Assembly: GCA_951406725.2 (NCBI GenBank)
Contig: OX597823.1
Span: forward strand, 22,754,001-22,818,000
Direction: 5' to 3'
Length of the DNA: 64,000 nucleotides
DNA from: Octopus vulgaris
Taxonomy: Eukaryota
Position 1 is the stretch's first letter. Each line of letters opens with the position of its first letter. Under the pieces are notes generated by a model. It was not told where the DNA came from, ran no database searches, and saw nothing but the letters and a program-made list of their open reading frames with translations. Positions 11,883 through 55,412 of this stretch are shown here, piece after piece. A program made the position numbers and the translations under genes.

Positions 11883-11935
11883 TTTTTCAAAATATTTTCG
11901 TCACTTTAAGACCGCGACCTGTTCACTGACAAAAA
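11883..11935 (-). ncRNA. Candidate minimal type I hammerhead ribozyme with G3-C8 core
   Basis: Minus strand: UUUUUgUCA GUGAACA g GUCGC ggucuuaaa GUGAC GAAA aUAu UU UGAAAAA. Stems I and II pair, stem III is palindromic (AAUAUU), and it abuts a (TA)n tract. Confidence 0.6.
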
Positions 11936-12679
11936 TACAAAAAGGGACAAGAACACAAAACCACCGGACAACAGTCACACGAATGCATCAGTGGTGACGA
12001 ACAGACAGAATAAGGGTTACTCAGTATCAGAATACAGTATAAATCATTAATGCTTATATAAGTTGCAATTCGAAAGCCATGCTCAATATCTACTTTTCCT
12101 GTTAACAGGATGGTTCAGCTGGTTTTCATCTGTTGGTTTGTATTTTAACGGTTGACAGAAACACAAGCCTCATACAAGACCAGAGTTAAAAACCCTAGAC
12201 TCATTTCAAGTCGAGAGAAGGCGTTCAAACATTTTTGCTAAATATAACATGCTTTTGCGTAGTCATATAACTGACCGGCTGAAGAATGCCAACAAACTGT
12301 TCGATCAACAGGAAATGCAGAGTATCTACCTTGGAATACACACACACATTCTCGTGTGCACACACTCACTCACATACAAGCCCACACGCATCCACACACA
12401 CACACACACACAGAATATTTCAAAATTAGAAAATAATAATTTTATATAAAATTGAGTTGGGGTTGGACGAAACACTGTTATGTATGTTTAAAACTTCCGA
12501 TGTAAAATAGGACCGCTAATTGCGGGACGCAATTAATGTTCCTTTCTTACGAAAACTCGGTTAAAGTTTTGTTGTATTTTTTATTCAGAAACTAAAATCA
12601 TTTAACGTATTTCTTTTTTCAGAACACACCAGCACCTACATGTTTCATCCTTCTCTCCTATTTGAGGTTTCCATCAATT

Positions 12680-13450
12680 ATCCTGAAGAATTGAAGGGAA
12701 ATATTGGTGAAAGAGACTGTCACCAGAACGCGTGTACAATGTTACTGAAACTGAACTTTACTGGAAACATATGACTATTAGGAATTTTATTTTCAGTGAA
12801 GAATAATCAGTATCGAGCTTTCGAGTTTCCAAAAATCTTTTGATACTTATTGTAGTAATATAAAATCAAAAATACAAACATCACTCAGAAAAATCTAAAG
12901 ACTTTCGAGGGTTATGTTAGACTTAATTTATCTGTGATGTGACCATTGAAATAAGAAGAGTTGGATGATAGTGAACGTTTTCTATTGATGCTTTCAGACT
13001 ACGAACCAAACATTCCACCCACAATGAAATAAATTATCTTTTTGATAATATATAGCCAAGAACATTTCTTTACCCGACCCAATGGATTAAAACATATTAT
13101 CTTCAAAGATCTTTGAAACTACTCATAAAGGCAATTGTTGTGGATGATAAATCTATAGTTAGAGACTTCTAGAAAAAATATTCGACATGGTCTTTACAGA
13201 ATATAATTTAGTCATGTCATGAAATGATACGAAATCCTCAGCCACGGATGCTGTTTGGCAAAATATGACCAGGTTTGCCATCAATATAAATTCTGCGTCA
13301 AATTTATCAAGATACTGACACACTGGCTAATGATGCAGTATTTACTGAAGTCGTTACAGATGTTGTGGTTGAGTTGCACGGATTCCATGGAGAAATTTTG
13401 TCGAATGAGAAGCAAATGATGATTCTAAAACAAGAACGAGCTGTAGGAGA
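12680..13450 (+). pseudogene. Highly decayed pogo/Tigger-family transposase
   Basis: Translation PERVYNVTETELYWKHMTIR..SFRVSKNLLIL resembles PEQVFNxDETGLFWKKMP..GFKASKDRLTLL; HHSEKSK resembles YHSENPR. Confidence 0.6.
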
Positions 13451-14422
13451 GAAAAAGAATACTGAAACTCCACCGATTCAAATTCAAACCAAGGGTTAAA
13501 TACGGTCCAACTGTGACCATACTGTCTTTATGTATATCTAGGACTATATCGACTAATGTGTCCTTTCTATTTTACGATGAAAAGGTGTAATTTGAAGGAA
13601 TTTGGTTGCTTCTTCTAAATAGTAAAACAAGCGCGATGATAAGCGTTGGTGCACTGATATGATTTCCATAGACAACTGAAAAACATATTTTAAACCTCGA
13701 TAGACGAGAGAAATAGAACAGAAATGATGGGAAGTGACGAACGCAAATGTTGAAATGACCGGTAAACCAAATGCAAGCTGTAACATAATACAGAATCTTC
13801 ATAAGATGCTGGTAATAACATATTTGTGTGAGAGACTGTGATATAGTTGATGTAATGCATAAAAAAGTTGAAACCTTTGTAACAATAAGAATTTATTCAT
13901 TCCTTCAAAGCCTGCAGAATAAGTTTAGAAAGAAAAATATGACACAAGTAATCGATCGAGAAATATAGTGTAGAAGGCAACAACGGTGGATAAAAAGAAT
14001 AACTCGGAAAATGCATTCGATCTAATCTAATCAAAGACAGTGCGTCACTCGGTCACTACTCCGGTTTTCTCACTTTTGTTGCGTTCGTTTAGACAAATTA
14101 TAACGAATGAATATGGATACACTTTGTCATGACTTGAATACCTTTTTCTCCTGTTTGCTCATTCACACACACGTGGATGTACAGACGCACACACACGCAC
14201 ACACAGAAACTCATATGCACACACACATCCATATACACACATACACATGTATATGCATATATATATATACATATATATACATACATACATACATACATAC
14301 ATACATATACACACATGTATATATAATATATATATATATATATATATATATATATATATATATATAATATATATATATATATATATATATAAATAGAGAG
14401 AGAGAGAGAGAGTGAGTGAGAG

Positions 14423-14591
14423 AGGGTGACAAAAGTGACAGAGGGTACTGATTAGTACCGCTTTTGCTAAAGATAAGAGTTAAACTAACTCAAATGCACA
14501 AACGCACTGTCTTAAGTGTGTTTGTGGCTTTGTGTATCTTTAGCAAAAGCAGTGCTAGCTAGTCAGTACTCTCTGTCACTGTTGTGACCTC
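14423..14591. mobile_element. Foldback/MITE-like palindromic element
   Basis: Arms GTGACAGAGGGTACTGATTAG..GCTTTTGCTAAAGATA and TATCTTTAGCAAAAGC..CTAGTCAGTACTCTCTGTCAC, plus an inner CACAAACGCACT/AGTGTGTTTGTG hairpin. Confidence 0.7.
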
Positions 14592-14652
14592 TGTTTTGCC
14601 TCTAGATTCTAATTGCTAATACGCCACCCTTTTTAATTTGCTATATATATAT

Positions 14653-14849
14653 GGCGTGTGTACCGTTGGTGATTTTTTTCCTCCGTCTTCCCTTCTTTGG
14701 ATCTTTCCTTCTCCTATGTTTCCGACGAAGAGCTCCGCTGGAAACGTTAAACCCTCCTTCTTACCTTCTTTCCTGAGCGTCCAATAATACTATATTTGTT
14801 CCACGTCCTCGCGTTGTGTTTTTTTGTGCTTTCTTGTTTGGATTAACTT
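14653..14849 (+). mobile_element. ~200-bp HHR-bearing repeat (probable solo PLE pLTR) between (TA)n tracts
   Basis: Homologous to 55212-55412 and 24466-24600(-). HHR-like gUUU CCGACGA a GAGC ucc GCUG GAAA cg UU AAAc at 14718-14752. Confidence 0.75.
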
Positions 14850-53077: not shown

Positions 53078-54237
53078 TGGGAATTCCGATGCCCTTGACA
53101 GACGAGTCTCGTCAGCTGCAATCTGTGTGTGTGCTTTCATGCACCAAGCGCCTATAGATAGGTAGGTGGGTGGGTAGGTAGGTAGGTAGGTAGATAGAGA
53201 GAGAGAGAGATGGTTGTTACCTCACGTAGCATCTTCATATTTTGGTATTAAAAAACAAAAAACAACTTTTCAAGACTTAAGAAGGCATGTTGTGTATAGT
53301 GGAGAAAGATTACAGATACTATTACAAGGAAAGTGTATCAGGAGAATTCAAAAACAAATGGATGGATGGATGGATGGATGGATGGATGGATATATCTATA
53401 TTAATAAATACCAAAATGAATTTCTGTGTGTCAGTGTATCACAATTTGACCCCCCTCTCTCATTAATCAATGATACTTCGACTATTCCTCCTGCTGGGAT
53501 GAGAGTAATAATAGGCATAGAGACGGTGAGGGCGGTAGTAGATTGATAGTTGTGATTGTAACGAGGTGATAGTAATAGTATGAGCTGTAGTTGAGATAGA
53601 ACCGGAGACAACGGTGATGGTGGTGATGATGGTGGTGGTGGTGGTGGTGGTGGTGGTAGCTTAGGCGGTCGGGGATGATGGTGATAGTAAGTGGTGTGAA
53701 AGACTGTGGTGATGGTGGTGAAGGGGAAGGCGGCGAAGCCAAAAGTATTGATGGCGGTGGCGTCAGAAGTCTGAATGTTGTGTGTATGGCAGTTGCGGTG
53801 GCGATGGTGGTGGTACTGGTGATGGTGTTGATTGAAAGCTATCAACAAAAAAGAAGTGCGAGGAAGAACGAGGTTTAAACAGAAAAAAAAATTGTACTGA
53901 CCCCTGAATGGGAAGACAAAACATGTTGTTTATCATGTGGTTTTGCAATAAGTTCCAAGTCGACAAATTATATCATTGTTTTGATGACAATTCTTTCAAT
54001 ACATCTAGCATCGATTCCCCTTGCTATATACCTAACGATCACTGTGAAAGTTGCCGTGCTTTACCAGTAAGCTACCAGGTGTGAACCGTTCGTTTTATTA
54101 TCCCTTGTGTGTGTGTATGTGTGGGTGTATAATCTTTTGTAAAATTTCCTTGATAGAATCACAATAATTAAAGAAAGTAATAGAAATATTAAAATTACTA
54201 AGTCTCTCTAAAGGAGATTACGGCAGCGTTACTGGAT

Positions 54238-54412
54238 ATTAATAGTTATCGCCATACTAATATGGCAGTCTATAAATAAGGTTCGAAGGTTGTAATGGAC
54301 GCAGGTTCGTGTGTCATATAGCTAGCTAGAGGCGATGGCCTCTTGGAGCTAATCAGCGACAGCTTTAGTCTTATTTATAGACTGCCATATTAGTATGGCG
54401 ATAACTATTAAT
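54238..54412. mobile_element. 175-bp MITE with perfect 43-bp terminal inverted repeats
   Basis: ATTAATAGTTATCGCCATACTAATATGGCAGTCTATAAATAAG (54238-54280) and its exact reverse complement (54370-54412). Confidence 0.85.
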
Positions 54413-54789
54413 TAAAGAAAGGTTTTTCTAAAAAAATTTGATTATTTTAAAAACTTTTGTATGACAGAATGTCACCAATCTTTCTGGAAGAAGTTTGCGT
54501 ATAGTGTTGTGCATTTTTTGTTAACACTTTTATTGTTCAATTTTTCGAACGCACGTATTCTGCGCTAATGCGTATAGTCGTCGTCATCGTCGTCGTCGGC
54601 GTGTATCGTACGCTTTTGCCGCGCGTTGATGACACTATCACGAAAGTCTTCCAGATTAAGCGCGATTTCTTCCATCGGATGAACCATAACGTTTCTTCGT
54701 TCTTTCTCAAAGGGGGGGGTGCAGTTATGTACACTTTGACAGAAGAAAAGCAGGACAAAAACAGTTTTATCGATCACATTCTCACCTGG

Positions 54790-55185
54790 AATCGATTTTT
54801 GTAATTTTTTCAAGACTTATACACCCCCTGATACAGTCGGTATCTACATATCAAAAGGCGGTGAGCTGGCAGAAACGTTAGCGCGCCGGGCGAAATGCTT
54901 AGCGGTATTTCGTCTGCCGCTACGTTCTGAGTTCAAATTCCGCCGTGGTCGACTTTGCCTTTCATCCTTTCGGGGTTGATCAAATAAGTACCAGTTACGC
55001 ACTGGGGTCGATATAATCGACTTAATCCGTTTGTATGTCCTTGTTTGTCCTCTCTGTGTTTAGCCCCTTGTGAGTAGTAAAGAAGTAGGTATCTACATAT
55101 CAAATTTGAGCGCAATCGGATGGAGGAGGTCCGAGATCCTAGAAGACACACACACAGACAGACAGAACGGATTTTATATAACAGA
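54790..55185 (-). mobile_element. 5' end of another Helitron-type element, interrupted by SINE B
   Basis: Minus strand A|TCTGTTATATAAAATCCG..(GTCT)n(GT)n..CCGATTGCGCTCAAATTTGATATG, same layout as the 5' end at 61745; 3' end not located. Confidence 0.55.
54856..55087 (+). mobile_element. SINE family B monomer with 17-bp TSD
   Basis: GGTATCTACATATCAAA at 54839-54855 and 55088-55104. Confidence 0.92.
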
Positions 55186-55211
55186 TATATATATATGTAT
55201 GTATGTATGTA

Positions 55212-55412
55212 TGTGATCGCGTGTGTATCGTTGGCGATTTTCTTTCTCATGCTTCCATTCTTTGGACGTTTTCTATATTTCTGATGAAGAACTCCGCTCG
55301 AAACGTGAAATCCTCTTTCTTTTCTTTCCTTTCCTGAGCATTCAATAACACAGTACTTATACCACGTCCTCGTGTTGTTGTTTTTTCTTGCTTGTTCTTG
55401 TTTGGATTGACT
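55212..55412 (+). mobile_element. ~200-bp HHR-bearing repeat (probable solo PLE pLTR)
   Basis: AUUU CUGAUGA a GAAC ucc GCUC GAAA cg UG AAAU at 55277-55311; homologous to 14653-14849; ends in (TA)n. Confidence 0.75.

Follow-up and report, generated by a model that had tools for sequence, protein, structure and literature searches.

The minimal hammerhead ribozymes of Penelope-like elements (PLEs) were described by Cervera and De la Pena in 2014 (PMC4209133), with about 1,300 U3-A8 matches in S. mansoni and motifs that carry an extra nucleotide after A9. The motifs studied here, found in a window of 64,000 nucleotides (nt) of the Octopus vulgaris genome (contig OX597823.1, positions 22,754,001-22,818,000) and then followed through this 2.8-Gb, microsatellite-rich animal genome, resemble them in type I layout, short palindromic stem III, G10.1-C11.1 pair, frequent U17, location in pseudo-long terminal repeats (pseudo-LTRs), inverted pairs and the presence of U3-A8 cores; the additional residue that separates position 9 from 10.1 recurs in our families A and B. 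The two sets differ in the tertiary pair between positions 3 and 8. In the rows compared from its representative alignment (Fig. S3), C3-G8, U3-A8 and a single U3-G8 are present but neither G3-C8 nor A3-U8, whereas here a G3-C8 family has at least 4,500 motifs and A3-U8 is found in two families. The motifs in the 3′ pseudo-LTRs of PLE families A, C and D, and in family B, which lacks an open reading frame (ORF), are probably self-cleaving minimal hammerheads whose 3-8 pair was swapped and stayed Watson-Crick. Typical copies hold the fold, the PLE families are linked to ORFs for reverse transcriptase (RT) and GIY-YIG endonuclease, and 3′ ends lie at (TA)n. Each of the four Watson-Crick combinations at positions 3 and 8 (C-G, U-A, G-C, A-U) is represented across families.

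Other described systems touch on parts of this picture. Natural covariation from C3-G8 to U3-A8 and a tolerated U4C viroid variant were reported by Perreault et al. 2011 (PMC3088659); the section of that paper considered here names just U3-A8 as an alternative 3-8 pair and contains no switch between A-U and G-C within a family, as seen in our family J. An engineered C3G/G8C exchange rescues in part the hammerhead of the Anolis Poseidon PLE in vitro (PMC11167929), and the G3-C8 pair engineered there is natural in family A and in a subfamily of J. Engineered G3-C8 was reported to be more active with G17 than with C17 (PMC3884650). Neptune and Hydra PLEs (Craig et al. 2021, PMC8557442) share with the elements described here a C-terminal GIY-YIG domain, linker motifs (CX4CxxC in family C; CxCX5C and DKT in relatives of family D), inverted pseudo-LTRs, a (TA)n bias and hammerheads. 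The descriptors of that study used canonical cores, and the clade placement of our families rests on such motifs and not on a tree with reference sequences; family A has been assigned to no clade.

The five core words named in the original prediction are all present in the window where it had placed them. A structure descriptor that left positions 3 and 8 free, while demanding a minimum of 3 bp in each of stems I and II and a palindromic stem III, matched four sites: 11926 on the minus strand (G3-C8), 30739 on the minus strand and 32745 on the plus strand (both U3-A8), and 51331 on the plus strand (C3-G8). The mean over 30 dinucleotide shuffles of the window was 0.63 matches, and a random 600 kb of the genome gave 10 matches against none in reversed and 0.5 in shuffled sequence. 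Two copies, at 14722 and 55281, were rejected by the descriptor. They belong to one family (B) and are 80% identical; the first has G instead of C at 11.1, which breaks stem II, and the second has a mismatched stem II and G at position 17, while their relatives fold with an intact GAG/CTC stem II. The proposal of four type I families using three 3-8 pairs holds at the family level but not for these two copies. No hammerhead reached the gathering threshold in an Rfam scan of the window (clan CL00010); the only hits, all below threshold, were to HH9 (22.9 bits; gathering score 52) and fell on the two family C copies.

Genome-wide counts were obtained with family patterns in which positions 3 and 8 were free, and reversed patterns gave no match for families A, B, C, D, J and N. 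Family A has a G3-C8 core with an extra G after A9, a 5-bp stem II, the palindrome AAUAUU, U17 (51 of 51 copies) and typically a 7-bp stem I; its window copy is a truncated 3′ pseudo-LTR piece of about 65 nt with one stem I mutation. The pattern found 4,559 matches, and the pair is G-C in 95 of the 100 listed, the remaining five being single changes. Stems I and II are held in the predicted minimum-energy fold of typical copies. Autonomous copies have an ORF of up to 1,025 amino acids with the same core about 1 kb downstream (6 of 20 ORF loci reached the motif within the locus bounds). The GIY-YIG domain of the 1,025-amino acid protein scores above the Pfam cut-off, and its RT was recognized by a YVDD motif and a weak BLASTP match to family C. 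A protein search with the family A endonuclease returned four matches, none bearing a clade name. Since the proteins of families A and C share just 23-29% identity, in short stretches only, the swap in A is considered independent of that in C. All six full family A copies checked carry a CTAAC branch-point-like word, a pyrimidine run and an AG/ATG start 39 nt before position 3, a context (loci L350, L351, L356) that recalls the intron end beside the hammerhead of D. virilis Penelope. Non-autonomous derivatives of the family occur in tandem arrays with 127-263 bp spacing (L034-L036, L040) and also head-to-head, tens of bases apart, so that two motifs on one transcript would result.

The U3-A8 element of the window belongs to family C. 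Its 529-nt inverted arms flank an ORF piece with a CX4CxxC linker (CGRPNCGIC, which fits the Neptune CX2-5CxxC) before GIY-YIG, 99.7% identical to the full ORF of locus L121. In that full copy the RT is detected as Pfam RVT_1 (E 4e-8), GIY-YIG remains below the cut-off, and a hammerhead motif is found in each direct pseudo-LTR, the two being 4,238 nt apart. A search of PDB sequences with the family C ORF gave no match. Among families A, C and D, inverted pseudo-LTRs bearing the hammerhead were observed in the window and at loci L350, L356 and L358. Among 1,968 genome-wide matches, the 100 listed are all U-A. Family C is judged to be young because its best-scoring matches are 99-100% identical. 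A rule by which nucleotide 17 would avoid pairing with nucleotide 3 was discarded on account of this family, where U3 stands with A17.

Two PLE families outside the window, J and N, have A3-U8. Family J came to light because the A-U and G-C pattern lists had one stem II in common; its protein pieces are 40-56% identical to family C. The 100 matches listed from its 108 comprise 82 A-U, 11 G-C, 3 A-C, 2 G-U, 1 U-C and 1 A-G by hand count, and A17 is present in 44 of 47 copies. The association of positions 3 and 8 has a Fisher p of 2.4e-10 on the 98 A/G by U/C rows, a value to be read with the copies being non-independent and the change one event. The A-U and G-C groups (L218-L247, L298-L317) are about 90% identical, and their majority sequences differ at six other of 382 columns; given a change at position 8, a hand estimate puts the probability that the linked changes include position 3 at about 2%, before complementarity or the discovery route is considered. 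Family N (L360-L371) is A-U in 69 of its 81 matches and has a PLE protein upstream, a stem II of just 2 bp with a GAAA loop, and C17. C, K, N and J group together in the endonuclease tree, which does not settle the order of the swaps; whether A3-U8 arose once or twice depends on a key node with 72% support only. Family K (L257, L263) is a Neptune-like PLE whose U3-A8 motif seemingly combines a 2-bp stem II with an additional nucleotide separating stem I from position 3.

Families B and D have C3-G8. Family B is an element of about 200 nt with a defined 5′ end and 12,122 matches, C-G in 96 of the 100 listed. Position 4 is C rather than U in 71 of these 100, which is likely a subfamily trait because the adjacent CpG at positions 7-8 is altered in only about 3% of copies. 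Family D (168 matches, C-G in 93 of 100 listed) has a long loop II, and in 6 of 12 loci a degenerate endonuclease sits upstream of its core. A relative of D has an 852-amino acid ORF with no Pfam match, and the relative at L352 contains DKT and CTCRDKSNC (CxCX5C), with RWK appearing as IKWK. A very abundant canonical C3-G8 family with stem II GGCUG/CAGCC, not seen in the window, was also noted (e.g., contig C1:585829).

What is common to all these families is the hammerhead core with its pair. Each keeps stems I and II, G10.1-C11.1, GAAA, A15.1-U16.1 and the palindrome, the window copies at 14722 and 55281 being exceptions, and the two core boxes (N3-U-G-A-N-N8-A9 and GAAA), together with Watson-Crick pairing of positions 3 and 8, recur across families, most B copies having C4. 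The view that double changes preserve the pair is borne out between families and strengthened by A3-U8 and by the switch in J. Within families, positions 3 and 8 change independently in about 0-15% of copies. Independent variation had been proposed as grounds for refuting the prediction; it does occur, but the test was mis-aimed, such changes being expected from decay. Covariation is visible only between families or subfamilies because single-copy changes represent decaying insertions, and for the same reason lone mismatches do not speak against the pair.

Family-agnostic patterns, for each of which the first 100 matches were listed, yielded 17,014 C-G matches against 420 in the control and 5,817 U-A matches, from several families, against 861. 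Non-pairing patterns gave 792 matches against 957 (purine-purine) and 572 against 503 (pyrimidine-pyrimidine), and among the matches listed no repeated word had a full fold on context check. This bears on the explanation that the swapped cores are relics, their master elements having drifted and the double changes being chance fixations in inactive motifs. There are about four independent events, the J switch needs just two transitions, and discovery was biased to paired cores, all of which would fit such relics. The relic explanation is nevertheless very improbable: besides the lack of a fully folding family in the non-pairing lists, young families with intact ORFs retain the swapped core in nearly every copy, and positions 3 and 8 of family A have no alternative letter at 5% or more in the contigs from four public runs that bear the codes of four organisms.

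Several candidate words were dropped after inspection. ATGAGTAC..., ATGATTAC..., GTGATCAG(A/G)TTGCAC... and GTGAACAGGTGTGG... were found in their context to be missing stem I, stem II or a palindromic stem III, as were CTGAATAAGG... (C3-U8) and TTGAGCA... (U3-C8). A look-alike of about 350 nt with G3/A3-A8, present in 10 copies (L288-L297), was not counted as it lacks U16.1 and any PLE protein match. It has plausible stems I and II and two more core-like words nearby, and is the nearest to a counterexample.

The 3′ end adjoins (TA)4 or longer in 45 of 54 copies of family B, 28 of 30 of C, 13 of 41 of A and 18 of 50 of J, compared with 5.3% of random 32-nt windows. For 10 of 23 family D copies, the distance between the core and the first TA tract is 240-259 nt. 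A (TA)n insertion bias of Neptune, Naiad and Hydra PLEs has been ascribed to the endonuclease linker (PMC8557442). The preference observed here would likewise be set by the endonuclease with its Zn-finger linker, and not by the ribozyme. The least probable of the explanations considered, which we regard as most doubtful, is that ribozyme retroelements targeting microsatellites form a class of their own, marked by these motifs. Family B, with at least 12,000 copies and a defined 5′ end, could be taken for such a class, no linked RT/GIY-YIG ORF having been found in 69 loci (a single match belonged to a neighbouring family). The same holds for family F, a U3-A8 type I motif with 6-bp stem I and C17 in tandem repeats of about 361 bp (L254, contig C1:8132500-8137000; L255), without a PLE protein match. 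However, PLE RT/GIY-YIG ORFs lie upstream of the motif in A, C, D, J and N, and non-autonomous hammerhead elements derived from PLEs have already been described. These non-LTR retrozymes (PMC7229834; bioRxiv 10.64898/2026.07.22.740005), short, non-coding and supposedly moved by PLEs, are resembled by the tandem derivatives of A and by family F, which yet has a variant core; family B differs from them in consisting mostly of dispersed monomers with a minimal motif, and was likely moved by PLEs. The assignment to PLE-type minimal hammerheads is borne out by the ORFs and by the pseudo-LTR location in A, C and D. The large set of variant-core retroelements that had been anticipated amounts to thousands of motifs, but in ordinary PLEs rather than in a class apart.

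In the active hammerhead, any Watson-Crick 3-8 pair preserves the geometry that puts nucleotide 8 at the active site. Two motifs would pair through the palindromic stem III, either from tandem pseudo-LTRs in a read-through transcript or from two RNAs, and would be cut after N17, possibly with the aid of the element's own protein, so that the element RNA is processed. Selection would act on the few retrotransposing master elements, while inserted copies decay neutrally. The fold with its 3-8 pair could instead be preserved because the PLE protein uses it as a structural signal, in ribonucleoprotein assembly or template positioning, cleavage being incidental or absent. We consider this unlikely, although it has more in its favour than the other alternatives. 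According to PMC11167929, cleavage in the Anolis PLE depends on protein, insertion in vitro proceeds without it, and the cut site coincides with the end of no RNA-seq read. The C4 of most listed B copies, a weak stem III and predicted pairing of nucleotides 3 and 17 would also be tolerated by a structural signal. An RNA-reading protein, on the other hand, would more likely fix base identity than tolerate four different pairs, and G5, A6, A9, G12-A14, A15.1-U16.1 and a non-G nucleotide at 17 are kept in every family consensus, most of them being positions fixed by the search patterns.

Self-cleavage remains our preferred reading, as a probability against which several observations weigh. PLE hammerheads cleave poorly in vitro as reported in PMC4209133, and the Anolis findings above point the same way. 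The predicted stem III duplexes are weak (-0.2 kcal/mol in A, -1.7 kcal/mol in B), and position 3 is paired with position 17 in the predicted folds of families C (U3 with A17) and A (G3 with U17), possibly an inhibitory ground state. Agnostic patterns show no excess for A3-U8 (709 against 793 in the control) or G3-C8 (253 against 395), the patterns excluding family A. The J switch amounts to a single event that came to light through its presence in both lists, and in the trimmed, star-like J tree the G-C copies are not a supported clade. No family with a complete fold and a mismatched consensus 3-8 pair was found, in searches that did not include wobble G-U or U-G families. Family B has no ORF in the loci searched, and cleavage of these motifs after N17 as dimers is itself something that we infer from sequence. 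Selection for catalysis, rather than for the fold or for protein binding, would account for the swaps.

Table 1. Coordinates of hammerhead families and adjoining (TA)n tracts in the window (position 1 is its first nucleotide).
Feature	Position	Strand	Details
Family A hammerhead motif, G3-C8	11883..11933	-	Core 11926-11920, U17 at 11890; descriptor match
(TA)n tract adjoining 3′ end of family A piece	11839..11872	.	Sequence
Family B short element, ORF-less so far as found	14651..14849	+	Hammerhead-like motif 14718-14752, core CCGACGA
(TA)n 3′ of family B copy 14651..14849	14850-14885		Sequence
Family B copy, hammerhead region deleted	24452..24620	-	TA tracts on both sides; repeat comparison
Family C, 5′-truncated Neptune-like PLE with inverted pseudo-LTR	30644..32840	-	Arms 30644-31172 and 32312-32840, 99% complementary
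Family C PLE ORF, C-terminal part	31295..32338	-	RT thumb region; GIY-YIG endonuclease preceded by CX4CxxC linker
Family C hammerhead motif in 3′ pseudo-LTR	30705..30742	-	U3-A8, core 30739-30733; descriptor
Family C motif, inverted arm	32742..32779	+	UUGAAAA core, 4-bp stem II, palindrome ACCGGU, A17 at 32776
(TA)n by family C inverted arm	32833-32890		Sequence
Family D, short 3′ piece of Hydra-like PLE with inverted terminal piece	51151..51592	+	
Family D canonical motif, C3-G8	51327-51443	+	Loop II about 84 nt, palindrome ACGCGCGU, A17
(TA)30 tract by family D piece	51091-51150		Sequence
Family B copy, U4 form, decayed	55206..55411	+	Core CUGAUGA at 55281; stem II mismatch, G17; (TA)n from 55412

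The window contains further mobile element sequences. An intact 1,489-amino acid Helitron Rep/helicase ORF (Pfam Helitron_like_N, PIF1) is encoded at 55737-60206 on the minus strand, and a similar helicase is represented by a broken piece (50053-51198, plus strand) that ends at a (TA)30 tract. ORF fragments at 15195-15581, 16571-17014 and 23649-24119 look by eye like Tc1/mariner transposases. At 39439-39877 an abundant short interspersed repeat forms a 182-bp tandem.

Judged by sequence, the motifs described here are minimal hammerheads of the ordinary PLE type and form an unusually varied set. PLE-type hammerheads, U3-A8 and (TA)n targeting are already in print; new are the natural occurrence of G3-C8 in many copies, that of A3-U8, and the switch within a family. 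Natural G3-C8 or A3-U8 was not found in a literature search, beyond whose reach variant-focused papers and figures could hold them. We give about even chances to a broader claim: that one genome holds active ribozymes with all four pairs, including unpublished natural A3-U8 and G3-C8, the latter in an autonomous PLE family that is young and has 4,500 motifs or more; that the J switch, a compensatory experiment of nature, reveals selection for cleavage itself during PLE retrotransposition; and that genome counts of animal hammerheads may fall short by a third to a half. As had been anticipated, descriptors fixed on CUGANGA miss whole families, amounting here to about 9,000-10,000 swapped-pair and about 8,600 C4 motifs compared with about 16,600 canonical ones, totals that are rough lower bounds drawn from different patterns. 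PLE hammerheads cut poorly in vitro, and their cleavage was dispensable in the one element that has been reconstituted. Where swaps have repeatedly preserved a pair that forms in the active fold alone, the sequences give evidence for a selected active conformation, and families A, C, J and N are ready-made natural test cases.

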